Shown here piece by piece: positions 13,842 through 39,153 of a DNA stretch of 64,000 nt (the stretch's first letter is position 1; every line of letters starts with the position of its first letter). Made by a program: the position numbers and the translations under genes. Source of the stretch: Alphaproteobacteria bacterium. Lineage in GTDB: Bacteria > Pseudomonadota > Alphaproteobacteria > MPNO01 > UBA830. Location of the stretch: the NCBI GenBank assembly GCA_965243135.1, contig OZ251539.1, positions 3,776,001-3,840,000 of the forward strand, read 5' to 3'. Under the pieces are notes generated by a model that was given only the letters and a program-made list of their open reading frames with translations, made no database searches and was not told the origin of the DNA.

Positions 13842-14161
13842 TCTCCCGCGTTCCGCTCCGCGTTTCCAGTCGGGAGTTCCGGCGGCGAGGAACCGTTTCA
13901 AGCTTGAAGCGAAATGCGCCGGGTGTCCGAGCGACCCTTTGCATCGAGACGTGAAGTCAGACGCCCGCCCGATTCGCGCCGACGGTTCCACCCGGCTTCC
14001 CTCCGCGAAGCCGACTGCCGCCCCTCGTCAAGGCGCGCCTCCGTCTCCGCGCCTTCGTCGGCGACGGGGCCGCGTCGCTGACCAAGGACGTCTTCGTCCT
14101 CCTGTTCGTGGACCGACGCACTACCGTTTCGACCGCCGCGCGACGTAGAATCGCCCCGGCG

Positions 14162-15658: not shown

Positions 15659-15688
15659 GGCCGCCGCCTTCGCGCCGGAAACGGCGTC

Positions 15689-16069
15689 CTAAAGGCTGTC
15701 CCTCGCGGTTGCGAAGCTGCTCATGCTTCCGGCCGTACCCACGCAGGAAGGCAGGGTCGAGGTGGTCGCTATCGTGCCCACCGTGCCCATCGTCTTGCCG
15801 CCGCCAGCGACCGCTAGCAGCGCCTCGTCCTGGAGCGTCTGGTTCGGGTCGGGAGGCATGGCCAGGTGGAAGGTGTCGCGGGTGTTGAGGACGACCTTCA
15901 CGTCCACGCCCACCGGCGTGTTGATCCCGTGCTCCCGCAGAACGTCCTGCGGACGCTCCTCGACCTCACGCAGCCGATCCTCGTCGGAACGGCAGGCGTC
16001 GGCGAGACCCTGAAGGGCGACGCCGTGCCGACGAATGACGCCATGGATGTCTTCCGGACTGTAGTGCAT
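15689..16069 (-). CDS. NHLP/proteusin precursor P4 (126 aa); core GKTMGTVGTIATTSTLPSCVGTAGSMSSFATARDSL
   Basis: VKVVLNTRDTFHLAMPPDP, LQDEALLAVAGG; AGGAG RBS. Confidence 0.92.
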   Translation of the reverse strand: MHYSPEDIHGVIRRHGVALQGLADACRSDEDRLREVEERPQDVLREHGINTPVGVDVKVVLNTRDTFHLAMPPDPNQTLQDEALLAVAGGGKTMGTVGTIATTSTLPSCVGTAGSMSSFATARDSL

Positions 16070-16148
16070 GATCGTCTCCTATGCGTGATTCGAGTGGATG
16101 CTCCATCCCGAGGTTCGAGATGCCGAAACTCATCCCCGAATTTTCGGG

Positions 16149-16200
16149 ATTGTGCATAGCGGGAGGGGCGAGTAAACCCTAATTTCAGACTTCCTGACAT
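16149..16200 (-). promoter_or_regulatory. P4 promoter: TCAG-N5-CTGA, GAAATTAGGGTT box, -35 TTTACT, 16-nt C-rich spacer, -10 CACAAT
   Basis: Reverse complement reads ATGTCAGGAAGTCTGAAATTAGGGTTTACTCGCCCCTCCCGCTATGCACAAT. Confidence 0.6.
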
Positions 16201-16559
16201 GGTATGCGGAACTTGAAGATTTTGCTTGATTTTTCCTCAATTGGTCGTAAACTAAAATGTACCACTTTCTGGAGAGCGCCATGTTCCAGTTCCGCTTCAA
16301 CAAGGCGCTTCGGGAACTTTGTGCCACTCGCGAAGGCCATGCCTACCCCGGCACCGGGCTGAAACTGGCGTTCGAGGAACCCCTGCTGGCAAATTGAAAT
16401 TACGCGATGTCAGGAGGTCTGAATTTGCGCCCGCCGGAAAACTCCCGGTTTTGCGCCAAGGGCAGCGCCCTTCCGTTTTTTCTGGACAAACTCGATTCGC
16501 CCGTCGGTGCAAACAGAATCGGCGCACGCTGCGCTGCGCGAAAGGGCGGGCGCGGTTGG

Positions 16560-16930
16560 AGCGGCTTCTCGAGAGCAGCCGCGCGGAGTTGATCCGCCGG
16601 GTCTGCAAGGCGTCCGCGACGCCCGCGGACGACTGCAACAGGCGAGTCGCACGACTGCGCTGCGCGAACTCCACGCCGCCGGGGCGGCGGTCGTCCGGGG
16701 CGGGCAGGCGGCGCCGTGGGCGGTCCGGGGCGACCGGGTGGCAGGTCTTCGGCTGGGTGAAACGGCGGACCCGCGCCAACTGTGGACCGATGCGCCGACC
16801 GGCGCGGCCGAGAAGAACAAGCCGCAAGCGCTGGGCGCGGGGGTTGCGGGACTGCCCGCCGAAGCGATGTTCTTCGACATTGGCGCTCTCCGCGACGGAC
16901 CTTCCCGAGCCTCTCGACCTCGGCGTCGGC
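16560..16930 (+). mobile_element. Degraded IS remnants (IS5-like fragment followed by IS4/IS50-like fragment)
   Basis: QVFGWVK resembles IS5-type DDE C-terminus; 16850-16925 resembles 28900-28980 (LPAE...LPEPLDL). Confidence 0.45.
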
Positions 16931-16970
16931 GCGCTGGCCGACGCTTACGTCCGCGACCGCAGGCGTACGT

Positions 16971-17771
16971 CTACGCGGTCCGCTCGTTCCGCGCGGCGCG
17001 GGCGATGTCGACGATGAGGACGAAGCGATGCTCGCCGGTCCTGTTCCAGGCGGTATGCGGATGCGTGTCGTCGAATATGAGCGCCTTTCCGGCTTCCCAT
17101 CGCCGCGCTTCCCCGTCCACCTCAAGGGCGCAATCGCCCGGCGGAACGATGAGCCCCAGGTGAGCCCTGTACAGGCGCGGGTCGTGCCCGACGTGAGGCG
17201 CGATGACGTGCCCGGATTCGAGGCACGAAAAGCCCGCGTTGACGAGGCCGGGCGCCTCCTTGACGATGGCCGCGGTGCGGGGGCAGGCCCGGCATCCGTC
17301 CCCCATCGCGGCGCCGTGCAGGTAAAGGCCGAAAAGCTTCCACGACGTTTCGGTTCCGCCGCCGACGCGGGAGCGGCTTCTTTCGATGGTCTGCCTGATC
17401 TCGGCGGCGGTCATCCGGGTGAAGGTCGGGGTGTACTCCCGCGTGCCCCATTCCGTCCACACCGAGCGGTCCAGGAGCAGGCGGAGCTCCGCGAGAATGG
17501 GATCGAACCCCGCTTCGAGCCTAGCCAGGAACGGAAACCGCGCTGCGTCGAGCCACCCGCTCGTCGGGACGGCGCCTCGCGCGCCGTCCGCGCGTCTCGC
17601 CCCCGCGATGTGGTCTCCGCGGGCAGGCCCGCCGAGGCGACCGGCTTCCGCGGCGGCCTCGCGCTCGCGTTCTTCGGTGCCGGCCGTCGGCGCCGCGCTG
17701 CCGGAGACGGCTTCGCGGGCGCTGGCGCTCTCGTCGCTGGCCGTCGGCGCCCAGCCCGGCTTTTCCGCCAT
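16971..17771 (-). CDS. Aspartyl/asparaginyl beta-hydroxylase family (AspH/LpxO-like) oxygenase 1; start uncertain
   Basis: CPRTAAIV, AGFSCL, IAPHVG, RAHLGLIVP, LIFDDTHPHTAWN, RFVLIVD. Confidence 0.85.
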   Translation of the reverse strand: MAEKPGWAPTASDESASAREAVSGSAAPTAGTEEREREAAAEAGRLGGPARGDHIAGARRADGARGAVPTSGWLDAARFPFLARLEAGFDPILAELRLLLDRSVWTEWGTREYTPTFTRMTAAEIRQTIERSRSRVGGGTETSWKLFGLYLHGAAMGDGCRACPRTAAIVKEAPGLVNAGFSCLESGHVIAPHVGHDPRLYRAHLGLIVPPGDCALEVDGEARRWEAGKALIFDDTHPHTAWNRTGEHRFVLIVDIARAARNERTA

Positions 17772-18152
17772 CGTCACGGGACGCGCGCGCCAGTTCGCGG
17801 GCGTATGGTTTCCGACCGCGCGGCAACGCGGCAGCTGCCCCGAGGCGGCGGGAGGGTCGATAGCTGTCGCCAGCGATTTGCAATGATCTGTTTCATCTCC
17901 CCCCTCAACTCCGATTGCTTTCAGATCGTCGAGTTCTGGTTGCCCTTGACGACCATAGTAGGCTTCCCCGTCCAAAATCAACGGGTAGTTTCGGCCTGAG
18001 CGTGTACGTCCGGACAGCAAGCGTTCGCTCGCGGGGCGAGCCGCCAAGCCACCTTGGGCAGGTCGTTCCATCGCCCCGCGAGCGAACGCTTGCGATGGGG
18101 GTATAGACAGCGCTGCGTCTGATCGTTAATCTAATCGTCAAGTGGAGATCTT

Positions 18153-19403
18153 ATGCAAACGCAACTGTTCCGAAAAGCTGCGCTGGATCGCCTCTCCTCG
18201 CCGGAGTTGCTGGACCGTGCGCTCACCGTCACCACGTCCAAGGTCTGGCTGGCGCTCGCCACGATCATGGCGCTGGCGGGCGCGGTCGTGCTCTGGTCCG
18301 TAAAGGGCGAAGTGCCGACTTTCGTAAAGGCCAGCGGCATCCTGTTGAGTCACGGCGGCGCGATTGTCGACGCGATGCCGTCCGCGGTGGGCACGCTGAC
18401 CAAGATCGCTCCCGCCGTCGGCGACGCTGTGGAGAAGGACCAGACCGTGGCCGAGGTCATCAACCGGGAGGTGCTGGAGCGTTACCGTAGCGCGGCAACT
18501 TTGGTGGAGGAACGCAAGCGAGCGCTCGCAGATTTCAAGAAGGCGGCGGCGGCGGAAGACGCGCTCGTCGAAGAGAACGTTGACCGGCAGCGCCGGCGTC
18601 TGGACCGGATCGAGCGCAGCGGGCGACAGCAGGTCGCGACGGCGCGCAAGCGCCTCGAGGACCACCGGAAGCTTTACGAAGACCACATCGTCACCCGGGT
18701 GACGGTGGAGCGCAGCCAGCAGGCTTTCGACCGGGCCGAAAGGGATCTGTTCAGCACGTTGCGCGAACGCGACAACCTGGAGTCCCGAGAGTTGCGGCGC
18801 CAGAACGAGCGGGAAACCCGCGTGGCCGAGGTGGAAGCGCGCCTTCAGGCGGCGAGGCGCCAGATGAACGAACTCTCTACCCAACTTGATACGCAGCGGG
18901 TGCTGGCTCCGGTTTCCGGCCGCGTCACCGAGATCAAGGCCACGGTGGGCAGCGTGCTCCGTCCGGGCCAGCCGGTGCTCAGCATCAAGACGGTCGAAGG
19001 CGAACTCGGCACGTTGATCTACGTAAGTCCCACGGAGGGCAAGAAAATCAAGCCGGGAATGGAGGTTTTGATCACGCCGGCGACGGTGCGCCGCGAGGAG
19101 CACGGCTCCCTGAAAGGAACTGTGGAGACCGTCTCCGAGTTTCCGGCCAGCCAGGAGGGCATGATCGCCGTGCTCCAGAACCGGCAACTCGTCCAGGCCC
19201 TCTCGGAGGACGGCGCGCCCTATACCGGGCGGGTGCTCCTCGAGCGGGATCCGTCGACGTCAAGCGGTTTCGCATGGACGTCTCCCAAAGCCTCGGGAGA
19301 GAAACTGACGTCCGGCACCCTCGCCAGCGTCGAAATCAAGACCAAAAGCCAGGCGCCGATCACCTTGGTCGTGCCGCTGATCAAGGAAACGTTCGGATTT
19401 TGA
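18153..19403 (+). CDS. NHLP bacteriocin system secretion protein (HlyD-family membrane fusion protein)
   Basis: LFRKAALDRLSSPELLD, GKKIKPGM, PATVRREEHG, SGFAWTS, PITLVVP. Confidence 0.93.
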   Translation: MQTQLFRKAALDRLSSPELLDRALTVTTSKVWLALATIMALAGAVVLWSVKGEVPTFVKASGILLSHGGAIVDAMPSAVGTLTKIAPAVGDAVEKDQTVAEVINREVLERYRSAATLVEERKRALADFKKAAAAEDALVEENVDRQRRRLDRIERSGRQQVATARKRLEDHRKLYEDHIVTRVTVERSQQAFDRAERDLFSTLRERDNLESRELRRQNERETRVAEVEARLQAARRQMNELSTQLDTQRVLAPVSGRVTEIKATVGSVLRPGQPVLSIKTVEGELGTLIYVSPTEGKKIKPGMEVLITPATVRREEHGSLKGTVETVSEFPASQEGMIAVLQNRQLVQALSEDGAPYTGRVLLERDPSTSSGFAWTSPKASGEKLTSGTLASVEIKTKSQAPITLVVPLIKETFGF

Positions 19404-19720
19404 GCGTGCCGCGCGATAATGGGCTTCGCCCGGCTGCCGTCTCGGCATCTTGCCTCGCCGACGAGCGCAGCAACCTGTGCTGCCTCCGCTTCCTGTGCGG
19501 AAATGCCGCTCGGACGCCATGCACGGCGAGCCATCCGGAGCGAACTCGGAAATGATCGCTGCGCTGCCTATCTACGAAATCGACCGGGGTTGCCGCGCAG
19601 TCATTCGCGCAACCGCGGGGCGCGGCCGTCGCGGTCGATTGCCGTGACTTCGCGATTAGGAAATGTTAAAGAAACAACGAGCTTCGCTGGATGATCTTCG
19701 TGGGTCAACCAAGAATGCCG

Positions 19721-19746
19721 TTGCTCCCCCCCCCCCCCGCTAGGTT
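19721..19746 (+). promoter_or_regulatory. C13 homopolymer in a promoter-like element upstream of the peptidase-ABC gene
   Basis: TTGCT-C13(19726-19738)-GC-TAGGTT. Confidence 0.4.
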
Positions 19747-19764
19747 TTCCGGGTAAACGTTTGC

Positions 19765-21963
19765 ATGGCAGAATCCCAGCCTTCTCTGGCTCCGAATCTC
19801 AAGCGTAAGCGCGGCGGACGGCGGAAGACCCCGACCATCCTGCAGATGGAGGCGACGGAGTGCGGCGCCGCTTGTCTGGCGATGATTCTCGGCCATTACG
19901 GCAGATGGGTGCCGCTCGAAGAGTTGCGGGTGCGCTGCGGCGTGTCGCGCGACGGCAGCAAGGCGGGCAACATGCTGCGGGCTGCGCGCGAATACGGACT
20001 CGTCGCGCAGGGCTTCCGGCGCGATCCGGGCCGCCTGTTCGACCTTCCCTTCCCGATGATCGTTTTCTGGAACTTCAACCATTTCATCGTGCTCGAAGGA
20101 ATCAAGGGCGACGCCGTCTACATCAACGACCCCGGTCAGGGGCCGCGCCGGCTCACCATGCAGGAGTTCGACGAGGGATTCACGGGGGTGTGCCTGGCTT
20201 TCGCTTGCGGTCCGGAGTTTCGGCGCGACGGCAGTCCGCCGAACGTGGCGCGCGGCCTGTTCGCCCGCCTCGGCCATGCGCGGACGCCCCTCTTTTACGT
20301 CATGCTGGCGACCCTGATCCTGGTCGTGCCGGGACTGGCCATACCGACGATATCCAAGGTCTTCGTGGACGATGTGCTGATCCCGCGCAACGAAACCCTG
20401 CTGCTGCCGCTGCTGATCGGTCTCGCGACCGCCTCTATCCTGCAAGGAGGGCTGACCTGGCTGCAACAGGACTGCCTCGCCCGCCTGGAAACCAAGCTGT
20501 CTCTGGTGACGACCTCGCACTTCTTCCAGCATGTCATAACCCTGCCGATGGCCTTTTTCGGCCAACGCTTCGCCGGCGACGTCGCCAGCCGCGTCGCGTC
20601 GAACGACAAGGTCGCGGCGTTGATCTCGGGCGAGCTTGCCACCAACGTGGTCAATATGCTGACCATGGCGATCTACGCGGCCGTCATGATCTCCTACGAT
20701 TTGGCGTTGACCCTGGTCGCGTTCGGCATGGTCTCCATCAACGTGCTGATGCTGCGGCTGGTATCTCGCGCTCGCGAGGACGGGAGCCGCCGCCTGCTCA
20801 AGGAACACGGCAAGGTGCTCGGCACGTCCGTCAACGGCGTCCACATGATCGAGACGCTGAAGGCGAACGGCACCGAGAACGTGTTTTTCAGGCGCTGGTC
20901 GGGAATGCACGCCAACGCGCTCACCGCGCAGCAGGAGCTCGGGTTGCTCACGAACCTGCTGAATGTCGTCCCGCCCCTGCTCGCCTCGATCACCACCGTC
21001 GCCATTCTCGGCGTCGGCGGACTGCGCGTTCTCGACGGCGCGCTCACCATCGGCGGGCTGGTCGCTTTCCAGAGCCTTGCCCGGAGCTTCTCCGGGCCGA
21101 TCGAGGGGATCGTTCAGTTCGCCTCCAATCTTCAGACGGTCAAGGGCGATATCGCCCGGCTCGACGACGTATTGAACTACGCTCCGGATCCGCGCGTGGT
21201 GAAGGGTCGGGATCCCGAACGCTTTATGGAGTTTTCGGAGCCGGCGGCCGGTTTCGTATCTCTCGAAAACATCTCCTTCGGCTACAACGTGAAGGAGCCG
21301 CCGCTCATCGAGGATTTCAATCTCAAGATCGGGCCCGGCCAACGCGTTGCCCTGGTCGGCGGTTCGGGCAGCGGCAAATCGACCGTCGGCAAGCTGATCT
21401 GCGGTCTGCTGGAGCCATGGTCCGGCACCGTGCGCATCGACGGTCGGTCGGTCGAGGAGATGTCGTCGGCGGATCTGGTCGGCAAGCTCTCTTACGTCGA
21501 TCAGGAAATCGTGCTGTTCGAGGGAACCGTGCGCGACAATGTCAGCCTGTGGAATCCCCTCGTCGCGGATCGCAGCCTCACCCAAGCTCTGCGCGATGCC
21601 GCGGTCCACGACGATGTCATGTCGGTTCCCGGCAAGTACGATGCGGTGGTGGAAGAGAGCGGTCGCAATTTCAGCGGCGGGCAGCGTCAACGCCTGGAAA
21701 TCGCCCGCGCGCTGTCCTTGGACCCGGCCATTCTGGTGCTCGACGAGGCCACTGCGGCGCTCGATCCGGTGACCGAGATGGAGATCGACGATCGCCTTCG
21801 GCAGCGGGGTTGCACCTGCATCATTGTCGCCCACCGCCTCAGCACCATCCGGGACGCGGACGCGATCGTCGTCCTGGATCGCGGGCGCGTGGCCCAGCAG
21901 GGCACGCACGAGCAGTTGATGGAGCAGGGCGGTATCTATCGCTCGCTGATCGCGTCGAGTTGA
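19765..21963 (+). CDS. NHLP export ABC transporter, C39 peptidase/permease/ATPase subunit
   Basis: QMEATECGAACL (catalytic Cys), WNFNHF, Walker A GGSGSGKST, FSGGQRQR, LDEAT. Confidence 0.95.
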   Translation: MAESQPSLAPNLKRKRGGRRKTPTILQMEATECGAACLAMILGHYGRWVPLEELRVRCGVSRDGSKAGNMLRAAREYGLVAQGFRRDPGRLFDLPFPMIVFWNFNHFIVLEGIKGDAVYINDPGQGPRRLTMQEFDEGFTGVCLAFACGPEFRRDGSPPNVARGLFARLGHARTPLFYVMLATLILVVPGLAIPTISKVFVDDVLIPRNETLLLPLLIGLATASILQGGLTWLQQDCLARLETKLSLVTTSHFFQHVITLPMAFFGQRFAGDVASRVASNDKVAALISGELATNVVNMLTMAIYAAVMISYDLALTLVAFGMVSINVLMLRLVSRAREDGSRRLLKEHGKVLGTSVNGVHMIETLKANGTENVFFRRWSGMHANALTAQQELGLLTNLLNVVPPLLASITTVAILGVGGLRVLDGALTIGGLVAFQSLARSFSGPIEGIVQFASNLQTVKGDIARLDDVLNYAPDPRVVKGRDPERFMEFSEPAAGFVSLENISFGYNVKEPPLIEDFNLKIGPGQRVALVGGSGSGKSTVGKLICGLLEPWSGTVRIDGRSVEEMSSADLVGKLSYVDQEIVLFEGTVRDNVSLWNPLVADRSLTQALRDAAVHDDVMSVPGKYDAVVEESGRNFSGGQRQRLEIARALSLDPAILVLDEATAALDPVTEMEIDDRLRQRGCTCIIVAHRLSTIRDADAIVVLDRGRVAQQGTHEQLMEQGGIYRSLIASS

Positions 21964-21967
21964 AGCG

Positions 21968-24904
21968 ATGACCGACAACAACGTCGTAGCCGAACGCATC
22001 AATGGCGTATCCTTCAGGGCCGGAGCGAACCAGCCCTTTCTCATGGACGATCCCGCCCGCGCTTTCTGGGTCGAGGACGGACATCTGGACATCTTCGCGA
22101 TCAAGCTCCTCAGCAACGAGGTCGCTACCCGTACGCCCTTCGTCACCCGCGTGCCCGCCGGAAGCATGTGCTTCGGCGCCCAGCGTCTGGCGGGCCGCGG
22201 GGGATCGGAGGGTCTGTTCGCCTTCCTCGCCGTGCCTTCCATCGACGCTGTCATCACCGTGGGCGAACGCGCCCGCGTCGCCTCGAAGGAAAATTTCGAC
22301 CTCGACGCGGTGATCTGGATCGACGAGTGGGTCGCCCGGCTCTCCGAGTTCCCGGTCCGAGGCGGAAGCCCGCCGCCGCGCAACGCGGCGCTGCTCGATG
22401 CCGACCCGAACGTGCCGTATCCCGCGGGCACCGCCGTAAGCGCGCATCACTCGGACATCGTCTGGGTTTCCGCCAACCGGCCGATCAGCTTCATCGGGGA
22501 CGGCGATCTGACCATCGGCGACGGCAGCCAGCTCGTGCCGCTGTCCGAGCGGACCTGGTTCGAGCTGGACGGCGACACCGAAGTCACGGCGCTTCAAACT
22601 CCGGCCGTCGTCATCGCGGAGCGGCTTTGGCCGTCCCTGGATCGTTTCAGCGCCCTTATCCTCGAATATGCGGCCATCGCCGAACGACGGAAGATCGATA
22701 CCTACAGCGACTATTATCAAACCCTGCTGCGGTCTCGCGAGACGACCACGACGAAGATGTTCGGGACCCTCGGCCAGGTTCTGGGCGTAGCGCAGGACCA
22801 GGAACAAAAGATCGCCGCCTCGTCCGGCGAGACTCCGCTGCGAACGGCGGTAAGCATCGTCGCCGAAGCCGCCGGGGTCACGCTCGAAATCGCGCGCAAC
22901 GTGAAGGAACCCGCCGATCCGGAGGAGGCAGTGGAAACGCTGGTTCGTCCGTCCGGCATCCGCTCGCGGAGAATCACGCTCACCGCCGACTGGTGGCGGC
23001 GGGACGGGCCTTCCTTGGTCGCGCTCGCAGGCGAGGAAAAACGGCCGATCGCTCTGCTTTCGGACGGGCGCGGCTCCTATCGCGCGGTCGATCCGACCGC
23101 CGGCAAGAGCTTCCCCGTTAGCGAAAAGGATGCCGCCGCGATCGGGCGTCACGGCGTGATGCTCTATTCGCCGCTTCCGCTGGATATCAAGGACGGGCTG
23201 TCGGCGCTGCGCGCTAGCTTGCGCGGGCGCTCGAGGGATCTCGGCGTCCTGATAACCATGGCCGTTCTCGGCGCTCTGGTCGCCTTGCTTACCCCTGTGG
23301 CGACCGGCGAGCTTCTCGCGGAGGTCGTCCCGCGCGTGGATACCTCGATGTGGATCGCCTATCTCGTCGCGTTGGTGTTCGCCGCTTTCGGCACCGCGAT
23401 GTTCGACGTGGTGCGCGCCCTTGCGTTGTTGCGAATCGAGGGCCGAATCGACGAGCGGCTCCAGGCGGCCGTGTGGATTCGCCTGCTCTCGCTGCCGGCG
23501 CCTTTCTTCCGCAGATTCACCGCCGGCGACCTGGCCGACCGGGCGAACGGCATAACCATGATCCGGCAGATGCTGACCGGCGCGACCGCGACCGCGGTGA
23601 TCGGCGGCGTGTTCTCCGTCTTCAGCTTCGCTTTGCTGTTCTACTACAGCTGGGAGCTCGCGCTGAGCGCGGCCGCCTTGCTGCTCGTTCTCATCGCCGC
23701 CACCTGGATATTCGCGCGCGGCGCAATGAAGCACCACCGCGCGGCGTTCACCGCCCAAGGATTGATCGACGGCTTCGTTTTCCAGTTGATCACCGGACTC
23801 TCCAAGCTGCGGATGGCGAACGCCGAAGCCGACGCGCTCGTGCATTGGGCGGAGCGCTACGCCGTCCAGAAACGCCGGACGCTTTCGGCGCGCCGCTGGG
23901 CCGCGGCCCAGTTTACCTTCAACAGCATGTTTACGCCGCTCGCCTCGCTCACCCTTTTCGCCCTCATCTGGTACATGCTTATCGAGGGCGGACAACAAGC
24001 CAGTTTCGGCCTCGCGGACTTCCTGTCCTTCAACGCCGCCTTCGGGCAGTTCGCCGCTTCGATGGTCGGGCTGACCGCCGCATGGACGACCGTGATATCG
24101 ACCATCCCGCTCTTCGAGCGCGTCCAGCCGATCCTCGAAGAACGGCCCGAGATAGCCGTGGGAGGCGCCGACCCGGGCGATCTAACCGGCGAAATCGAAT
24201 TTTCGAACGTGTGCTTCCGCTATCTTCCATCGGTTCCGAACGCGGTCGACGGAGTGTCCTTTCAGATCCGACCGGGCGATTTCGTGGCCTTCGTCGGTCC
24301 GTCCGGTTCGGGAAAGTCGACGATCTATCGGCTGCTGCTCGGCTTCGAGGTCCCGGATTCAGGCGCGATCTTCCTCGACGGCAATGACCTGTCGAGCCTC
24401 GACATGGCGGCGATCCGCTCCCGCATGGGCGTGGTCTTGCAAAACAGCCAGCTTTCCGCCGACAGCATTCTGAAAAACATCACCTGCGGCGCGCCGATGA
24501 CCATGGACGAAGCTTGGGAGGCCGCCCGGGCGGTCGGTCTCGCAGAGGACATCGAGGCGATGCCGATGGGGATGCACACGGTGCTGCCCGAGGGAGGGGG
24601 GGGGTTGTCCGGCGGGCAGAAGCAGCGGCTGCTGATCGCCCGCGCCATGGCCCGGAAACCGCGCATCATGCTGTTCGACGAGGCTACCAGCGCCCTCGAC
24701 AACCGCACCCAGGCGATCGTCCAGGCATCGCTGAAGCAGCTCAGCATCACCCGCGTGGTGATCGCCCACCGCCTCTCCACGGTGCAGGACGCCGACCAGA
24801 TCTTCGTCCTGGAGGCGGGTCGAATCGTCGAGTCCGGACGCTACGACGATCTCATGGAACAAGACGGCGTCTTCACCTCTCTGGCGCGGCGGCAGGTCGT
24901 CTGA
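21968..24904 (+). CDS. NHLP export ABC transporter permease/ATPase subunit without peptidase
   Basis: WWRRDGPSL, TM domain, GPSGSGKST, LSGGQKQR, FDEATSALDN. Confidence 0.93.
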   Translation: MTDNNVVAERINGVSFRAGANQPFLMDDPARAFWVEDGHLDIFAIKLLSNEVATRTPFVTRVPAGSMCFGAQRLAGRGGSEGLFAFLAVPSIDAVITVGERARVASKENFDLDAVIWIDEWVARLSEFPVRGGSPPPRNAALLDADPNVPYPAGTAVSAHHSDIVWVSANRPISFIGDGDLTIGDGSQLVPLSERTWFELDGDTEVTALQTPAVVIAERLWPSLDRFSALILEYAAIAERRKIDTYSDYYQTLLRSRETTTTKMFGTLGQVLGVAQDQEQKIAASSGETPLRTAVSIVAEAAGVTLEIARNVKEPADPEEAVETLVRPSGIRSRRITLTADWWRRDGPSLVALAGEEKRPIALLSDGRGSYRAVDPTAGKSFPVSEKDAAAIGRHGVMLYSPLPLDIKDGLSALRASLRGRSRDLGVLITMAVLGALVALLTPVATGELLAEVVPRVDTSMWIAYLVALVFAAFGTAMFDVVRALALLRIEGRIDERLQAAVWIRLLSLPAPFFRRFTAGDLADRANGITMIRQMLTGATATAVIGGVFSVFSFALLFYYSWELALSAAALLLVLIAATWIFARGAMKHHRAAFTAQGLIDGFVFQLITGLSKLRMANAEADALVHWAERYAVQKRRTLSARRWAAAQFTFNSMFTPLASLTLFALIWYMLIEGGQQASFGLADFLSFNAAFGQFAASMVGLTAAWTTVISTIPLFERVQPILEERPEIAVGGADPGDLTGEIEFSNVCFRYLPSVPNAVDGVSFQIRPGDFVAFVGPSGSGKSTIYRLLLGFEVPDSGAIFLDGNDLSSLDMAAIRSRMGVVLQNSQLSADSILKNITCGAPMTMDEAWEAARAVGLAEDIEAMPMGMHTVLPEGGGGLSGGQKQRLLIARAMARKPRIMLFDEATSALDNRTQAIVQASLKQLSITRVVIAHRLSTVQDADQIFVLEAGRIVESGRYDDLMEQDGVFTSLARRQVV

Positions 24905-24910
24905 TCCGCG

Positions 24911-25708
24911 TCAAGCGGCCGGCGCCCCGTCGCTTACGCGGCGCGCGTATTCGTGCCATTCCGCCGAATAGACGGCGTCGTGCAGGGTCAGCCGCTTCTC
25001 GCGCGGTTCATAGACTCCGCAATGCAGCATGTTGCTCCTGTAGACGACGAGGTCGCCGGGAGCCGCCGCGACATTGACCGCTCCGCAGGATTTCAGCTTT
25101 CCGGGCAGCGCGCTCCGCAAGGCGTCGACCGCCTCGAGGTCCAAGGGGCCGATGCGGCAGTCGCGATGGACGGCGCGCGCCCGAACCAGTTGCGATTCGT
25201 CTTCGCTGTCGTCCCGCGCATGGGATCCCGGTATTACCCACAGGCTCGAATCCGCGAGCAAAGGGATGTTGATCTGATTGAAGTATCTCAGATCCCCGGT
25301 TCGAGCCTTCCATGCGTCGAAATCCAGATCGTCCAGGAAATCTCGATAGTCCCGGTGCAGCCCCGTCGACCACCATCGGTCGAGCGGCTCGATCAGAAGA
25401 CCCGTGAGATGGGGATCTCGCGACATTTTCGGGGCGGGCAGTATCGTTCCCCGGAACAGCGCGTCGATAGACCTGTCGAGTTGCGGATTGTCGTAGAACG
25501 CCGCGATCCAGGCCGAAGCTCCGGGATGAGATTGAAGCGGCTGAACGCGCTGGATGTTGCGGTCGCGGGTCAAGAGCCGCGCCCGTTCCGGCAGGCGCTC
25601 GACGAAGCGGATCGCCGAAGCGACTTCTTCGGTCCCGAAGACGCCGCGAATATGGACGAAGCCATCCTTGATATAACGGTCGCGCAGGTCCAAAGCCAAG
25701 TACCGCAC
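24911..25708 (-). CDS. Phytanoyl-CoA dioxygenase (PhyH) family Fe(II)/2OG oxygenase, about 265 aa
   Basis: YIKDGFVHIRGVF, LHRD (HxD), LWVIPGSH, PGDLVVYRSNMLHCG. Confidence 0.8.
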   Translation of the reverse strand: MRYLALDLRDRYIKDGFVHIRGVFGTEEVASAIRFVERLPERARLLTRDRNIQRVQPLQSHPGASAWIAAFYDNPQLDRSIDALFRGTILPAPKMSRDPHLTGLLIEPLDRWWSTGLHRDYRDFLDDLDFDAWKARTGDLRYFNQINIPLLADSSLWVIPGSHARDDSEDESQLVRARAVHRDCRIGPLDLEAVDALRSALPGKLKSCGAVNVAAAPGDLVVYRSNMLHCGVYEPREKRLTLHDAVYSAEWHEYARRVSDGAPAA

Positions 25709-25713
25709 AGGGT

Positions 25714-27390
25714 TCAGTCGAGGAACATGAGGCCGGGTTTGAGGTTCCAGCGCGTTCGCTGCGCCTCGCGCTCGAGATCCGGCAGATCCCGGATTCCGAG
25801 CTCGCGCGGCGTCAGCGCCCCGATCGCGTCCAGAAGCGAATACGCCTGCACGAGGGCGTCGCGCTCGGCCGTCAGCGCCCTGACCTGGTAAAGCACGAGA
25901 CTTCGTTCGGCGTCGAGCACTTCTCGCGTCGAGCGCTCGCCGATAGCCGTCTCTCTGCGAATGCCGGCGAGCGCGACCCGCGCCGCCTCCACCGCAGTCG
26001 CCAATGCCGCCCGGCGCTGCCGGGCCGCGAGCATGCCGTGCCAAGCGCTCGCAGCCCGCTGCGCCGCATCGCGCTGCGCGGCGGCGCGTTGGTCGCGGCG
26101 CTGCGCCAAGGCGTGTCCCGCCTGGCGGACCCGCGTCCCGACCGAGCCGGCCTGGTAGAGCGGGATTCTCAGCTGGACGCCCAAGCTCTGGTCGGTGCTG
26201 TTGAGAAAGCCGTCGGTGCCGTGTCCTATGGTTCTTGCGACGGTGGCCCTCAGATCGACGCTAGGTCCTATGTCGCCCTTGGCGGCGCGCACTGCATGGG
26301 CGGCGGCCCGTTCCGCGTAAACGGCGGCGCGCACCGAGGGGTGCCGGTTCCGGGCAGCGTCCAGCGCCGCGTCCAGCGTCTCGGGCAGGCCGGCCGGCTC
26401 GTTCGCAGGTTCCAACCCGACCGCCGGCAGTCCCACCAGCGTTTCGAACAACGCCTGCTGCACTTCGAGACTGGCCTTGGCCGAGGCCATGTCGGCGGCG
26501 GCGATCTCCCGCTCCGCATCGGCCTGGGCGACGTCGGCCCGGGTGCGATCGCCGACCCGGAACTGGGCCCTGGTCTCGCGGGCCTGACGTTGAAAGGAAG
26601 AGAGCGCAGCCTCGCGCAACCTGACGGTGCGCTCGGCGCGAAGCACGTCGAGATAGGCCGTGGCCGCGCGCAGCAGCACGGCCTGCTCGGTGTCTTCGAC
26701 GACGGCGTGGCTCTGCCGCACGCCCTCCTCCGCCTGGCGCAGCCCTGCCGTGTCCCGTCCGCTACGGAAGAGATTGTGGGTGTAGGCGAGCTCCAGCGAC
26801 TGCCGGTCGCTGCCGTCGCTGCCGGTCTCCAGGCCGGGCAGTGGAAACAGAGCGGCCCTATCGGGGATGAAGCGTTCCGTGGTGGTGTCGATCACCGGAA
26901 GGCGCCCAAAAGAAGTAGGAGCGCCCTGTCTGGCGGCGGTGCCGATCCGGGTTCCGCTCGCGCCCGCGGTGAGCTGAATCGTCGGAAACCATGCCGAGAG
27001 CGCGAGAGGGACGCTCTCGTGACGGGAACGAGCTGCGGCGCGGGCGGCCTGCACGTTCGGGTTGGATCGCGCCGCTTCGACCAGCGTTTCCTCGATGGTC
27101 AGCGCGCGAGCCGGAACGGCAGCCAAAACCGCCGCGAAAACCAGGAGCGCGCAACGCCGGGCCGTTTCAAGGCCGTTCTTGACCGGCAACCCGAGAGGCG
27201 CCGCAGCGCGCGGCGGGCTCTTTTGCGCCCTTCGCCGCCGGACAGCAATTCGATCTGCTCGGGATTTCAAGATCCTCGACCTTGAACGCCCAATCCGCGC
27301 ACGCTTGAAGTTCGGGACGCCGCAGACAAGCCGATCGCACCCAAACCGTTCGAGGAAGAGAACCGAGTACGCCTTGTCGAGATCGAACAT
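25714..27390 (-). CDS. TolC-family outer-membrane efflux protein; start uncertain
   Basis: Signal-like CALLVFAAVLAAVPARA, ALTIEETLVEAARSNP, AYLDVLRA, RIPLYQAG, GERSTREVLDAE. Confidence 0.85.
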   Translation of the reverse strand: MFDLDKAYSVLFLERFGCDRLVCGVPNFKRARIGRSRSRILKSRADRIAVRRRRAQKSPPRAAAPLGLPVKNGLETARRCALLVFAAVLAAVPARALTIEETLVEAARSNPNVQAARAAARSRHESVPLALSAWFPTIQLTAGASGTRIGTAARQGAPTSFGRLPVIDTTTERFIPDRAALFPLPGLETGSDGSDRQSLELAYTHNLFRSGRDTAGLRQAEEGVRQSHAVVEDTEQAVLLRAATAYLDVLRAERTVRLREAALSSFQRQARETRAQFRVGDRTRADVAQADAEREIAAADMASAKASLEVQQALFETLVGLPAVGLEPANEPAGLPETLDAALDAARNRHPSVRAAVYAERAAAHAVRAAKGDIGPSVDLRATVARTIGHGTDGFLNSTDQSLGVQLRIPLYQAGSVGTRVRQAGHALAQRRDQRAAAQRDAAQRAASAWHGMLAARQRRAALATAVEAARVALAGIRRETAIGERSTREVLDAERSLVLYQVRALTAERDALVQAYSLLDAIGALTPRELGIRDLPDLEREAQRTRWNLKPGLMFLD

Positions 27391-27519
27391 GACTTGCGAA
27401 CCGTTTTTTAGCGAATGGTGTCTTTCAGGTGGATTCAACTCTACATGTTTTCCCGAGCAAGTCCACCAGAGGCGTGCGCCGGAGTTCGCATCGGGGAGTC
27501 CCCAGGATTTCCCGCGCCG

Positions 27520-27720
27520 CATCGGGCAGCTTGGAGGTTCGCTCCACCGACGACCGAAAAGAGGCCGCCGCCGTGCAAGCGCTGCGGTTCCGCGCATTCC
27601 ACGAAGAGATGGACGCTCGGCCCTGTCGCGCGGGCGAGTCGCCGGGACACGGTTCGACGACGTCCGCGACCACCTACCCGTCCACCGCCTACGGAGGCCG
27701 TCGCCTATCGGTTGTTGCGG
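27520..27720 (+). pseudogene. Remnant of an OlsB-like GNAT N-acyltransferase
   Basis: GSLEVR..EAAAVQALRFRAFHEEMDARP, then frameshifted RFDDVRDHL. Confidence 0.5.
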
Positions 27721-27834
27721 GAAGATCGGCGTCCGAGCACGACTTGAATCCGCTGACCGACGGACAGTCGCGACGCGGCGGCAACCCGCGGCTCGGGCGC
27801 CCCGGCCGGACATGCACCATGTCGGCCGCGGCAT

Positions 27835-28632
27835 TCAGCCAGCGTCGCCTTCGTGGCGCAGCCAATGGGTGGCGAAGCGCCTCCACCGCTCCAGCGGCTC
27901 GCAACGGCTTATCTGCAAGCTGTCGTAGGGTCGGAGAGCCCCCGGGTGGTGCACCATCCTCCCGTCGGCCTGCACCACGGCCGCGTGATTGGGCACCTTC
28001 GACCGCACACGGAACAAGACCACGTCCCCGATGCCGGAATCCGCCGCGTCGATGGCCCGGAACCCCGCCTTCTCAAACCCCGCCCGGTAGAGATCCAGAC
28101 CCTCCAACCACCAGTTCCAGTCGCGCGGAAAGTCGGGCAGCAGGACGTTGCGCTCCTGACGGTAGTAGTCGCGAATGAGCGAGTAGCAATCCGTCACCCC
28201 GTGCCGGAACGGCCGGTTCAGCAGCGGCAGCATGGGACACTGGTCCCCGAACCAGAAGCGATCGACGCACCGCGACCGGTCGGACACCACGACGCCGAAG
28301 GGCACCGCCAAGGCCGCCTGCGCGCGCATCTCCGCCGCGCTCGGAACGAACAGCGACAGGTCGAGGTCGTCGTTTCCGGCCGCGGTCGAGGAGCGCGTGT
28401 GCACCGCCGCCAACAAGGCGCCGTGAGTTTCCTCCATCCAGCGCAGCGCCACCTCCTCGACCCGGAAATTGGCGCGCGAGTTGTCCGCGACCTCGGCGAC
28501 GGAGCGATAGACGGGGTCGGCGCGGCTCCCGAACACGGCCCCCAGCGCCTCCCCGGGAAACGCCTCGAGCGCGTGGGCGTCCATGGCGTCCTGGAGACCC
28601 TCGAACAGCCGGGTCTGCGCTATCCAGCGCAT
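27835..28632 (-). CDS. JAB/Mov34 + NlpC/P60 (C40) protein, lambda tail assembly protein K-like, copy 1
   Basis: HALEAFPGEALG, VHTRS, PSAAEMRAQ; LLNRPFRHGVTDCYSLIRDYY, VPNHAAV, MVHH. Confidence 0.88.
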   Translation of the reverse strand: MRWIAQTRLFEGLQDAMDAHALEAFPGEALGAVFGSRADPVYRSVAEVADNSRANFRVEEVALRWMEETHGALLAAVHTRSSTAAGNDDLDLSLFVPSAAEMRAQAALAVPFGVVVSDRSRCVDRFWFGDQCPMLPLLNRPFRHGVTDCYSLIRDYYRQERNVLLPDFPRDWNWWLEGLDLYRAGFEKAGFRAIDAADSGIGDVVLFRVRSKVPNHAAVVQADGRMVHHPGALRPYDSLQISRCEPLERWRRFATHWLRHEGDAG

Positions 28633-28769
28633 TCGAATCCGCTCCGGGGTTCGCGCCTGCGCCGCGGACCGTTCCTCGTTAGGCGAACGGCGGCGAGGCG
28701 CGGTCCTGCCGACGGCGCGCTTGTCGCGTCCGCAGGGAGGAGCTGCAGGTTCTGGCGCCGCTTGCGGTG

Positions 28770-29140
28770 GCGCGCTGGCGCAAGGTTCTGAAATCCGGAG
28801 TCGACGCCCGCCGCGCCGCCGAACGGCTCGAACGCGCGGCCACCGTCAACGCCGCTTGGCGCTCGGCGACGCTGCTCGGTCGGGCAACGCCGCGACTTCC
28901 CGCCGAGGCGACGTTCTCCGATGTCGAGATCGGCGTTCTCCGCGACTTCGCCACGGACCTCCCCGAGCCTCTCGACCTGAACGCCGCGGTGCTGGCGATG
29001 ATCGGGGTCGCCGCGACGGACCGCCCGGCTACAAGGCGATCCGGCAAACTCGCGGCTCATGGCGCAGGCCTGCGGAACCGGGTGGCCGCCGACGAGCCGC
29101 GCCAGCAACTGCGTCCGCACAAAACTTGTGACTAGGGGAG
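28770..29140 (+). mobile_element. IS4-family (IS50/Tn5-like) transposase C-terminal remnant with possible right end
   Basis: KVLKSG..ERLERAATVNAAWR..LLGRATPRLPAE..PLDLNAAV; ACTTGTGACTAG near 29124 resembles Tn5-type ends. Confidence 0.6.
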
Positions 29141-29234
29141 CGCCTGACCCTCGACGCGCCGGAAAAAGGCGAGCGGAGAAGGACGGAAGGGCGACGGTCG
29201 TCACGGCCGCCACCTTCGCGTTGGAAACGGCATC

Positions 29235-29565
29235 CTAAATTCTGTCCCTCGCGGTTGCGAAGCTGCTCATGCTTCCGGCCGAATTCACGCAGGAAAGAAT
29301 GCTCCCGACGGTTCTCCCCGAGCTCGCCGCGCCACTCGACTTGCCGTCGGCGCCTCGCCCTGGAGCGCCTGGTTCGGGTCGGGAGGCATGGCCAAGCGGA
29401 AGGCGTCGCGGGCGTTGAGGGCAACGTTCACGTCCGTCGATCCCGCGCTCTCGCGGAACGTCCCTCGGACGCTCCTCGACCTCGCGCGACCGATCTTGGC
29501 GGCAGGCGTCGGCGAGGCCCTAAAGGACGATGCCTTGCCGAACGCCGCAGATGTCTTCCGGATCG
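29235..29565 (-). pseudogene. Decayed NHLP precursor; residual core GKSSGAASSGRTVGSILSCVNSAGSMSSFATARDRI
   Basis: Nucleotide similarity to P4 and P5; deletion removes part of the AVAGG site and shifts frame. Confidence 0.8.
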
Positions 29566-29635
29566 TCTCCCCTGCGCGGTTCGGGCGGATGCTCCACCGG
29601 CGCGTACTATATCGCCCCGCTTAATGTAACCTTGT

Positions 29636-29745
29636 TTGGACTCCACCGCATTGCTGCTGGCGCAGCCCAAGGGACGCGAACGTCAATTTCGCCATCCCGG
29701 ATGCCTTGTGGTCTCCACCGCATTGCTGCTGGCGCAGCCCAGGGA
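29636..29745. repeat. About 33-bp direct repeat duplicating the P5 core tail
   Basis: CTCCACCGCATTGCTGCTGGCGCAGCCCA at about 29641 and 29713. Confidence 0.85.
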
Positions 29746-30090
29746 GCTAACTGAACTCGCGGTGGAAGGAATGCTCCCGACGGTTCCCCCCGAGCTCGCC
29801 GTGCCGCTCGTCTTGCCGCCGGCGACCGCCGTCAGCGCCTCGTCCTGGAGCGCCTGGTTCGGATCGGGAGGCATGGCCAGGTGGAAGGTGTCGTGGGTGT
29901 TGAGGACGACGTTCACGTCCACGTCCATCGGCACGTCGATCCCGTGCTTCTGCAGAACGTCCTTCGGATGCTCCTCGACCTCGCGCAGCCGATTCTCGTC
30001 GGCGTGGCAGGCGTCGGCGAGGTCCTGAAGAATGATGCCCTGCTGGCGAACGTATTGGAAGATGCCTTCCTGGTGAATATTGTCGTGCAT
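29683..30090 (-). CDS. NHLP/proteusin precursor P5 (135 aa); core KTSGTASSGGTVGSIPSTASSVSSLGCASSNAVETTRHPGWRN
   Basis: VVLNTHDTFHLAMPPDP, LQDEALTAVAGG; leader is a paralog of P4. Confidence 0.92.
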   Translation of the reverse strand: MHDNIHQEGIFQYVRQQGIILQDLADACHADENRLREVEEHPKDVLQKHGIDVPMDVDVNVVLNTHDTFHLAMPPDPNQALQDEALTAVAGGKTSGTASSGGTVGSIPSTASSVSSLGCASSNAVETTRHPGWRN

Positions 30091-30169
30091 GGTCGTCTCC
30101 CCTGCGATGTCCAGACTTCAGACGGACGCTCACGGTCCAAGACGCGGAATTCGTCCGCGAATCTTTAAG

Positions 30170-30211
30170 ATCATGCACAGCGGGGGGGGGGGGGGGGTAA
30201 ACCCTAATTTC
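30170..30211 (-). promoter_or_regulatory. P5 promoter: GAAATTAGGGTT box, -35 TTTACC, C16 tract (20-nt spacer), -10 CATGAT
   Basis: G16 at 30182-30197 on the + strand; aligns with the P4 promoter but is 4 nt longer. Confidence 0.6.
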
Positions 30212-30340
30212 ACGCAGGCGTGGCGCGACTCGGCGGCGGTCACCCTGTTCCGCAGCTCGTAGGCCTGCGCCTTCGGTCGCGAGTCGCCAGATCGCCTCGC
30301 AAAAGCCGGAGAAGAATGCAGCGCAGACCGCAACCGTGGC
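30212..30340 (-). mobile_element. Inverted copy of the IS4 3' remnant
   Basis: Reverse complement resembles 29026-29105 (GGCGCAGGCC...GCGGAAC.GGGTG.CCGCCG). Confidence 0.5.
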
Positions 30341-30536
30341 GTAGGATATCCCTGCTTCGGCAGCATATTAGGGTTGCGACCGTTTATTCTTGCTGCGAAA
30401 TTGCCGGTTCGGCGATTCTGCCGGGCCGGCGCGACCGGACTTCCAGGCCGTTTCGTCGGCGCCGGACAACGCCCGGTCCGTTCGTCCGACGGGGAAGCGA
30501 CCGCAGCGGTGGACCCAAACCTTGGAGCGGCATTGA

Positions 30537-31331
30537 ATGTTCGGAATAAAGCAGACCCGGCTGTTCGAAGGACTTCGCGGCGCCATGGAGACGCACGCGC
30601 TCCAAGCCTTTCCGGGAGAGGCGTTCGGCGCGGTGTTCGGGAACCCGGATCGTCCCGCCTACCATCCCGTCGATCAGGTCGCGGACAACTCGCGCTTGGG
30701 TTTCCGGGTCGACAGGGCCGCGCTGCGCCGGCTGGAGGAGACTCACGGCGCCTTGCTGGCGGCGGTGCACACGCGCTCCGCGACCGGGGACGGGGACGCC
30801 GATCGGCTGCTGTTCATCCCGAGCGACGCGGAAATGCGCGCGCAGGCGGCCCTCGCGGTGCCCTTCGGCGTGGTGGTCTGCGACCGGTCGCGCTGCATCG
30901 ATCGTTTCTGGTTCGGGGATCAATGCCCGCCGCTGCCTCTGCTGAACCGGCCGTTCCGGCACGGGGTGACGGATTGCTATTCGCTCATCCGCGACTATTA
31001 CCGGCAGGAGCGGAACGTTCTGCTGCCCGACTACCCGCGAGACTGGAACTGGTGGGTGGAAGGTCTCGATCTCTACCGGGCGGGCTTCGAAGAGGCCGGG
31101 TTCCGGACCATCGACCCGGCGGACGCCGACGACGCGGACGCGGTCATGTTCCAGATGCGGTCAGACGTGCCGAATCACGCGGCCGTGCTGCTGGACGACG
31201 GGTATATGTTGCACCACCCAGCGGCGCTGCGGCCTTACGACCCTCTCCGAATGAGCCATCGCGAGCCGCTGGAGCGATGGAAGCGCCATGTCACGCACTG
31301 GGTGCGCTACGAAGGCAGTCAGAACCTGTAG
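30537..31331 (+). CDS. JAB/Mov34 + NlpC/P60 (C40) protein, lambda gpK-like, copy 2
   Basis: Close paralog of 27835..28632; DCYSL, NHAAV, MLHH retained. Confidence 0.88.
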   Translation: MFGIKQTRLFEGLRGAMETHALQAFPGEAFGAVFGNPDRPAYHPVDQVADNSRLGFRVDRAALRRLEETHGALLAAVHTRSATGDGDADRLLFIPSDAEMRAQAALAVPFGVVVCDRSRCIDRFWFGDQCPPLPLLNRPFRHGVTDCYSLIRDYYRQERNVLLPDYPRDWNWWVEGLDLYRAGFEEAGFRTIDPADADDADAVMFQMRSDVPNHAAVLLDDGYMLHHPAALRPYDPLRMSHREPLERWKRHVTHWVRYEGSQNL

Positions 31332-38616: not shown

Positions 38617-38662
38617 ATGTCAGGAGATCTGAAATTAGGATTTGAAATTAGGGTTTCCCCCC
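38617..38662 (+). promoter_or_regulatory. P6 upstream element: TCAG-N5-CTGA plus tandem GAAATTAGG(A/G)TT boxes and C6
   Basis: ATGTCAGGAGATCTGAAATTAGGATTTGAAATTAGGGTTTCCCCCC. Confidence 0.6.
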
Positions 38663-38739: not shown

Positions 38740-39153
38740 ATGCCCCCTATCAACTTGACGACCGTGCTTCACATACCGGTGTCGCCCGAAGGACTCCTAC
38801 AGAGCGTGCGCCAGCTCGCGTCCATCGCGGATGAGTACCGCAAGGATCCGGAGTTTCGCTCGAACCTTAGCTCGGACCCGGTCGCCGCCCTCTCCGAGAA
38901 CAGCATCGAGGTGGTGCCCGATACGGAAGTGCGCATCGTCGAGGACACCGACGAGGTTTTCCATTTCATCCTTCCCCCCGACTTCAACGCCAGCGTGGGG
39001 GACGAGGTGCTCAATGCGGTCGCCGGCGGCGGCAAGACCGCCAGCAGCGCGACCACCGGACCCGGCTATGGGGGGCCCCGAGGACCCTCTTGCGGATGCG
39101 GCGCAAGCTGCATCGACGCATGGACCTCACGAGGGGGAAGCGGCTCCATCTGA
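38740..39153 (+). CDS. NHLP/proteusin precursor P6 (137 aa); core GKTASSATTGPGYGGPRGPSCGCGASCIDAWTSRGGSGSI
   Basis: YRKDPEFRSNLSSDP, VRIVEDTDEVFHFILPP, VGDEVLNAVAGG. Confidence 0.9.
   Translation: MPPINLTTVLHIPVSPEGLLQSVRQLASIADEYRKDPEFRSNLSSDPVAALSENSIEVVPDTEVRIVEDTDEVFHFILPPDFNASVGDEVLNAVAGGGKTASSATTGPGYGGPRGPSCGCGASCIDAWTSRGGSGSI

Follow-up and report, generated by a model that had tools for sequence, protein, structure and literature searches.

Poly-C runs before NHLP-type RiPP precursor genes: candidate slippage switches in a sponge-associated alphaproteobacterium

Could runs of cytosine between the two hexamers of a promoter allow a bacterium to switch the precursors of its modified peptides one at a time? 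Spacer homopolymers switch the fim promoters of Bordetella and the porA and opc promoters of Neisseria by slipped-strand mispairing, and an earlier note on the 64-kb stretch of DNA analysed here (the window) had proposed that individual RiPP precursor genes toggle in the same stochastic manner. Long C runs occur at three places in the window: C13 at 5408-5420 (plus strand), C13 at 19726-19738 (plus strand) and C16 at 30182-30197 (minus strand, i.e., G16 on the plus strand). The first and last of these had already been listed and are real, whereas the second had been overlooked. All three are long enough to slip (approximately 8 bases or more), and overlapping C10 matches numbered 15 at the three places, as against 0.25 expected from 100 shuffles of the window (standard deviation 0.66, largest 4).

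The NHLP cluster and its promoter strings

Judged by its predicted genes, the locus is an NHLP (proteusin-type) RiPP gene cluster, having both precursors with a leader and Gly-Gly site and the exporter and maturase genes. Three precursor genes, P1, P2 and P3, are consecutive on the plus strand (5462-5848, 5926-6306 and 6319-6684) and are followed by that of a YcaO/SagD cyclodehydratase, the maturase (6853-9189, plus strand; 276.9 bits, above the cut-off); the gaps being short, co-transcription is probable. Beyond them are encoded a LanM-like protein (9277-13143; 253.6 bits, just below the cut-off of 304), a PoyD-like radical SAM epimerase (14162-15658, minus strand; 315.7 bits, just below the cut-off of 325) and the precursor P4 (15689-16069, minus strand; 126 aa), which is 64% identical to P5. 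The gene for an HlyD-like protein (18153-19403) precedes those of the two NHLP exporter proteins, ABC1 (19765-21963, plus strand; C39 peptidase/permease/ATPase; NHLM_micro_ABC1, 1020.7 bits) and ABC2 (21968-24904, plus strand; 843.3 bits), both of which scored above their equivalog cut-offs, and further on lie the genes for a TolC-like protein (25714-27834, minus strand) and for P5 (29683-30090, minus strand), which is intact at 135 aa. That the small genes are RiPP precursors, as had been supposed, was confirmed by matches to the NHLP leader model TIGR03793 (cut-off 50.9 bits), to which P1 scored 56.5 bits, P5 50.8 bits (0.1 bit under the cut-off) and a further gene at 38740-39153 44.6 bits, and by the presence in the precursor translations of a leader and a Gly-Gly site (VAGG/AGGK).

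The three promoter strings on which the proposal had been built were found to be exact. Upstream of P1, the promoter box GAAATTAGGGTTAACT (5392-5407, plus strand) ends in the -35-like TTAACT (5402-5407), the C13 run makes up 13 of the 16 spacer bases and is followed by GGC, and a -10-like TATATT (5424-5429) precedes the ATG at 5462. The P4 promoter (16149-16186, minus strand) consists of a box with TTTACT at 16176-16171, a C-rich and interrupted spacer of 16 nt, CGCCCCTCCCGCTATG (16170-16155), in which the longest C run is 4, and CACAAT at 16154-16149, with the ATG at 16069. The box of P5, GAAATTAGGGTTTACC (30196-30211, minus strand), has TTTACC as its last six bases (30201-30196), and the pure C16 run overlaps this -35, two of its C lying inside the hexamer, so that the spacer consists of C14 and GCTGTG and is 20 nt long; a -10-like CATGAT (30170-30175) and the ATG at 30090 follow. 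The run at 19726-19738 lies 26 nt 5′ of the exporter ATG, and a doubled box with a short C6 run (38632-38655, plus strand) lies upstream of the NHLP precursor gene at 38740. A consensus promoter scan called the P1 site (9/12, with 0.0 expected in shuffles) and did not call P4 (8/12); P5 was not called because its spacer falls outside 16-18 nt.

We favour, with moderate confidence, the reading that the C runs are slippage-prone spacers, which would form a slipped-strand switch or dial for the exporter and for individual precursor units. The runs would form the variable spacers of sigma-70-type promoters, with the -35 inside the box and the -10 (TATATT, CATGAT) after the run; when replication slips on the C:G homopolymer, bases would be gained or lost, the distance between -35 and -10 would shift and the strength of the promoter would change, each precursor unit and the exporter being affected independently. 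As assembled, the 16-nt spacer of P1-P3 would be inside the range kept by stable family members, and the 20-nt spacer of P5 would be beyond it, leaving that promoter probably weak or off. P4 would be the stable counterpart of P5, as its interrupted spacer cannot slip. That P1-P3 are on and P5 off in the assembly is weakly indicated, depending as it does on an assumed -10 and on a run length called by the assembly. More generally, we infer that the hexamers form a working promoter, that run length changes at a high rate in populations and that length alters expression. The putative hexamers of P1 fit a -35 and a -10, and the place of the -10 is kept in 8/8 P5-type promoters, but P4 and P5 are below the scan threshold and an alternative -10 exists; the strict consensus scan backs P1 alone among P1, P4 and P5, and 6 of 55 runs genome-wide.

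The surroundings of P5 have several features of their own. Paralogous genes of 265 aa with a C-terminal NlpC/P60 domain flank it in inverted orientation (27835-28632, minus strand, and 30537-31331, plus strand); a one-mismatch copy of the box at 30365-30375 lies upstream of the second, which may therefore share the box regulon and is a possible candidate for the leader peptidase. Directly downstream of P5, at 29250-29620 (minus strand), is a decayed P5-like precursor copy that has frameshifts and a leader-like 5′ region without a start codon, and in front of which the last 30 nt of P5 are duplicated. The P5-type leader of approximately 80 nt (30088-30169, minus strand, and relatives) is conserved, and in 6/6 sequences it contains a UCUC with the potential to pair with GAGA in the ribosome-binding site; no covariation was found for this pairing in the six sequences, which speaks neither for nor against a structure, and a search of Rfam with 29000-31000 gave no matches at E up to 1. 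Within the frame of exporter gene ABC2, a G9 run (24596-24604) encodes Gly-Gly-Gly just 5′ of the LSGGQ signature. Its length falls in the valley of the run-length distribution of the genome, and it is a possible frameshift-prone site.

A promoter box and the stretch that follows it

The 15-nt box GAAATTAGGGTTwAC, which contains the -35, lies directly 5′ of every precursor-gene run and upstream of most NHLP precursor genes in the host and in two other genomes. Its 10-nt core has 14 exact copies in the host genome, 10 of which are, by coordinates, just upstream of a P5 match. A C-rich stretch follows the core in all 14. Six of these stretches are pure runs (C11 to C16), of which five precede precursors and one an autotransporter gene. 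The chromosomes G041 and G042 (MAG: Alphaproteobacteria bacterium) have 6 and 13 copies, mostly before NHLP-type genes. The box was absent from three other genomes searched (G002, G004 and G025), and the NHLP loci of these, of which G002 and G004 are of the same genus, had neither the box nor any C/G run of 8 or more. Since box and run were found together in one of 26 genomes of the taxonomic family, that of the host itself, the box is not a trait of that family. A metagenome scan for a box followed by a run produced three matches, none orthologous to P1 or P5; two, both in A+T-rich sequence and one located where a sugar-modification gene ends, were set aside as chance matches. On a G+C-rich, unrelated metagenome contig (L092, JAEAMG010001208.1; minus strand, approximately 1075), the third match, the same 13-nt box is followed by C17, 115 nt 5′ of a gene for a secreted protein.

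Eight P5-type upstream regions from the three genomes were aligned, the last six bases of the box being taken as the -35. The box was invariant in 8/8, and the hexamer nAnnAT, whose last two bases are invariant in all eight, was fixed relative to the conserved leader in 8/8, leaving the stretch between box and hexamer as the sole part that varies in length. Spacers measure 16, 17 (or 20), 18, 18 and 18 nt in the five interrupted copies, and 18 (C12), 20 (P5, C16) and 22 nt (C16) in the three with pure runs. In P1-type promoters, the pure runs of the host give spacers of 16 and 18 nt. A comparison of related genomes, which had been proposed as a check, found the orthologous promoters of P1 in G041 and G042 to be interrupted, with spacers of 15 and 16 nt. 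This is the pattern that would be expected if 15-18 nt works and pure runs drift off it. Two details qualify the choice of -10. The interrupted member listed at 17 or 20 nt has three GAT repeats, and its spacer length varies with the one taken as the -10; 20 nt may therefore be tolerated. In addition, GCTrTG directly 3′ of the run is an alternative -10 that would give P5 a spacer of 16 nt and P4 one of 12 nt, so that the on/off call for these two would be reversed.

The genome-wide runs and their differences in length

The host genome is a single contig of 6.10 Mb with 65% G+C. Sequencing runs labelled as sponge metagenome carry about half of the sampled words of the window, and one of them contains pieces with no differences to it. 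C/G runs in the host number 798, 80, 14 and 7 at lengths 6, 7, 8 and 9, and are then followed by 55 at lengths 10-21, while no A/T run extends beyond length 10. The genome has, therefore, the excess of long simple repeats that marks contingency loci, 55 runs beyond a valley at 8-9, and the runs of the window belong to this genome-wide set of approximately 55 poly-C/G runs, a putative contingency-locus system in a sponge-associated alphaproteobacterium. Both mutS and mutL are present and uninterrupted, and slippage is therefore not boosted by a loss of mismatch repair. G041, G042 and the other complete genomes belonging to the order are likewise rich in words of C12 or longer; fragmented assemblies, in which such runs may fail to assemble, have few of them.

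Genes were called in a crude manner (3985 genes, 78% of the genome), with strands mis-assigned and small precursor genes missed, and the call was therefore used only to separate coding from non-coding sequence. In the 22% of the genome without called genes lie 38 of the 55 runs, and only about 8 of the 55 have coding-like sequence on both sides, as against 255 of 300 control windows inside genes. Two of the runs, at genome positions 741106 (G11) and 2859508 (C17), have coding-like sequence on both sides and lie in paralogous large genes (1054 and 944 aa) without a Pfam match, which are candidates for frameshift-type phase variation. G comes next after 43 of the 55 runs and "GC" after 24, and the six nucleotides 5′ of the runs are 60% A+T, compared to 35% genome-wide, all of these counts being inflated by paralogues. 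Hexamer pairs of at least 9/12 flank six of the 55 runs, as against 0.75 (maximum 3) in 200 shuffles of the flanks and 0 in the reversed control. A test of run orientation by the nearest downstream ORF was uninformative, as 77% of random positions also pass it.

Neighbours were surveyed for 19 of the 52 runs outside the window, hand-picked for their long neighbours. The 20 ORFs beside them comprised 7 autotransporters, 1 adhesin-like protein, 2 DNA methylases and 10 without a Pfam match; 10 of 20 hand-picked neighbours are thus of the surface, secreted or restriction-modification kind. The adhesin-like frame, of 14,003 codons with Calx-beta, He_PIG and LapA domains, begins 54 nt 3′ of a C20 run (genome 183204-183223), and a copy of the box is found 270 nt further upstream of that run. 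The reading in the earlier note, of a switch in RiPP expression, was too narrow, given the 55 runs genome-wide and the presence of the box before autotransporter genes as well.

The related RiPP clusters of G041 and G042 carry runs of their own, at other places than in the host. In both, a run immediately follows an ATG, itself provided with a ribosome-binding site, at the start of the P3 orthologue: C19 in G041 (L036, 2357-2384) and C13 in G042 (L035, around 1842-1864). With C13 the ATG is in frame with the precursor and with C19 it meets a stop after 12 codons, making this run, on its reading frames, a candidate frameshift switch on a RiPP precursor. A further run lies approximately 70 nt 5′ of the HlyD-like gene (C16 in G042, G24 in G041), and G041 also has C18 95 nt 5′ of the box of its P1 orthologue. 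The exporter-gene run of the host, for its part, sits in a stretch of approximately 290 nt that is absent from both related clusters.

These distributions bear on the alternative that the runs are a mutational by-product, in which spacers C-rich by descent would become pure runs by point changes and drift once beyond 9-10 bases, with effects on expression incidental and P5 silenced and decaying. Interrupted C-rich spacers (CGCCCCTCCC, CCCCCTCC, GCCCTCCC) are indeed the commoner form, 25 of 35 distinct box sites in the three genomes lacking a pure run of at least 11; the decayed copy adjoins P5; and a slippage threshold alone would yield a two-peaked distribution of lengths. We nevertheless consider this explanation unlikely. 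P5 is intact over its 135 codons and has kept its leader and Gly-Gly site, long runs cluster at classes of gene that bear contingency loci elsewhere, and runs arose at different places of the same RiPP cluster in three genomes. Moreover, few long runs lie inside genes, a scarcity that implies selection on the sites at which they persist.

The reading of the runs as slippage-prone spacers also depends on whether their lengths vary, and this was approached through copies. Six pairs of runs have alike 60-nt flanks, and the five with 100% identical flanks all differ in length. Two copies of an IS with 0 mismatches over 1384+125 nt have C17 and C15, two with 0 over 1450+131 nt have C15 and C18, and further orthologous sites gave C8/C13 and C11/C12/C14. 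The IS-like repeat (genome 419006, 448899, 477004, 631025, 5407825, 5425744, 5530326 and 5759341) has its C/G run, 9 to 18 long, approximately 130 nt from one end, the run being the sole difference between identical copies; it may be part of a variable outward promoter or transposase promoter. A precursor cassette at 4.92 Mb of the host genome is 96.6% identical to one in G042 over 667 nt, with promoter and leader differing by one base, yet has C12 where the other has C16; the related-genome comparison thus found a difference in run length at sister sites of P1 and P5. As mutS of the host and of G042 are 68% identical, the cassette must have been shared recently. The cassettes (genome 4921300-4921960, i.e., L014 1300-1960, and L023 1298-1962) comprise promoter and precursor, approximately 660 nt, bounded by a repeat of approximately 60 nt, and judging from these alignments precursor cassettes seem to move horizontally.

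Public sequencing runs were compared by their contigs, 10 of them, none an RNA run, carrying the stretch. The k-mer contigs of runs X1 and X3 match 17449-19867 and 18686-19867 with 0 differences and 0 gaps, C13 included, so that the run at 19726 has equal length in two samples of one study, of which X1 may be the source sample of the assembly. When 10501-30500 of the window was compared with X1, X3, X4 and X6, none of the pieces listed bridged 30182-30197, and no indel was found at any run in the rows listed. Two joints at the G run (30024/30193 and 15348/30180; X3 only), with sides of 23 nt or foreign letters in between, were discarded as repeat-like. The claim of stochastic toggling gained from the location of the runs in spacers, the contrast of 15-18 with 20 and 22 nt, the differences in length between copies and the contingency-type genome, and lost from the identity of the C13 at 19726 in two sequencing runs.

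That identity is also one of the observations in favour of the runs being a fixed part of the promoter, of a length stable in the lineage, which might serve as a rigid spacer, a G-quadruplex or i-motif, or the site of a factor that binds C/G runs, while a regulator reads the box GAAATTAGGG. The length of the box, far above that of a -35 hexamer, and its invariance in 8/8 aligned promoters do point to a dedicated factor. A fixed length, however, is difficult to reconcile with run lengths that range from 9 to 18 among identical IS copies and differ by 4 between near-identical cassettes, and there are members of the family without any run at the same place (P4, and the P1 promoter orthologues of G041 and G042); we regard this explanation as distinctly improbable.

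Least likely of all, and very improbable in our judgement, is that the runs are real and their lengths wrong, with the copy differences and the contrast of 16 and 20 nt being artefacts of homopolymer calling: host and both comparison genomes are single contigs, presumably built from long reads as is usual, and such data are at their weakest in homopolymers of more than 10 bases, but miscalls cannot explain the exact agreement of the X1 and X3 contigs with the assembly at the C13 at 19726, differences of 3-5 bases between copies exceed the usual consensus error of one base, and if a consensus wobbles, a mixed population is one likely cause. Miscalls could explain part of the copy differences, and statements on spacers to the single base are fragile, as long-read assemblies can err in homopolymers of 12-20 bases. 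Slippage-prone spacers thus remain the reading that we prefer.

Precedents and the meaning of a switched peptide repertoire

Among the closest likenesses in the arrangement of a promoter are fim2 and fim3 of Bordetella pertussis, where a poly-C lies between the activator/-35 region and the -10. As here, approximately 13-15 C are placed in the promoter downstream of a conserved recognition site, and each paralogue has its own run and switches independently; the cargo there, however, is fimbriae rather than RiPP precursors and an exporter, and the switch here is a candidate one. In Neisseria meningitidis, porA (poly-G) and opc (poly-C) likewise have the homopolymer between -35 and -10, where the length of the spacer sets expression, and belong to a genome-wide set of genes under the control of repeats. 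The runs of the host are longer (11-16, and up to 21 genome-wide) and belong to an uncultured organism of sponge metagenomes with 65% G+C. Campylobacter is not known to have MutS/MutL-type repair, whereas mutS and mutL are intact here, and runs here are mostly non-coding. What it shares with the host is many intergenic and intragenic G/C homopolymers per genome with an over-representation of long runs (PMC8355987).

The nearest precedent found for the cargo is the nap island of Neisseria gonorrhoeae, which encodes the bacteriocin-like NapR and NapC with double-glycine leaders and has poly-G and poly-T in reading frames (PMC11798529). The poly-G of napR ranges from 6 to 12, and the authors considered phase variation of the secreted peptide likely (PMC11798529). 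Homopolymers of varying length at genes for peptides with double-glycine leaders are thus common to both systems. In the nap island two genes are concerned, their peptides are not known to be modified and the run, being in frame, makes a frameshift switch (PMC11798529), whereas in the host runs occupy the promoter spacers of several NHLP precursor units and one also precedes the exporter gene. The prochlorosins form a library of peptides, encoded by numerous precursor genes dispersed across the genome and processed by few maturases (PMC10783134). Many precursors and few maturases are a likeness to the host, but diversity there comes from the number of genes, and stochastic control of single precursors is not described in the sections of that article available to us (PMC10783134). 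Two further matches (PMC8545106 and PMC4746626) dealt with unrelated matters (pilus phase variation, RACE tailing and gene islands). The literature searched, drawn mostly from outside subscription journals and supplements, gave no homopolymer switch in RiPP precursor promoters or a RiPP exporter, in keeping with the view in the earlier note that none had been described for RiPP precursors. The type of switch is textbook; what makes it of interest here is its cargo, how many independent sites one pathway has and how large the genome-wide set is in an environmental symbiont.

It is possible, and we put this forward tentatively, that several precursor units of one proteusin-like pathway and its exporter each have a slippery spacer of their own, that the cassettes with these runs move between lineages, and that sister cells release different subsets of modified peptides as a form of bet-hedging. 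In that case it would be the first natural-product repertoire under the control of contingency loci.

Most of the contingency loci known are those of host-adapted pathogens, in which they control surface structures. If the reading of the runs as slippage-prone switches is right, an uncultured, high-G+C bacterium of sponge metagenomes would be running a comparable system of approximately 55 runs with its mismatch repair intact, and that system would govern autotransporters, DNA methylases and an adhesin. Were the same device to act on RiPP precursors and on the exporter that serves them, the mixture of peptides would become stochastic, heritable and reversible. This would bear on why RiPP clusters with multiple precursors exist, and on why products predicted from the genomes of symbionts often go undetected, and the heterologous expression of such clusters should then be undertaken with the length of the run fixed.
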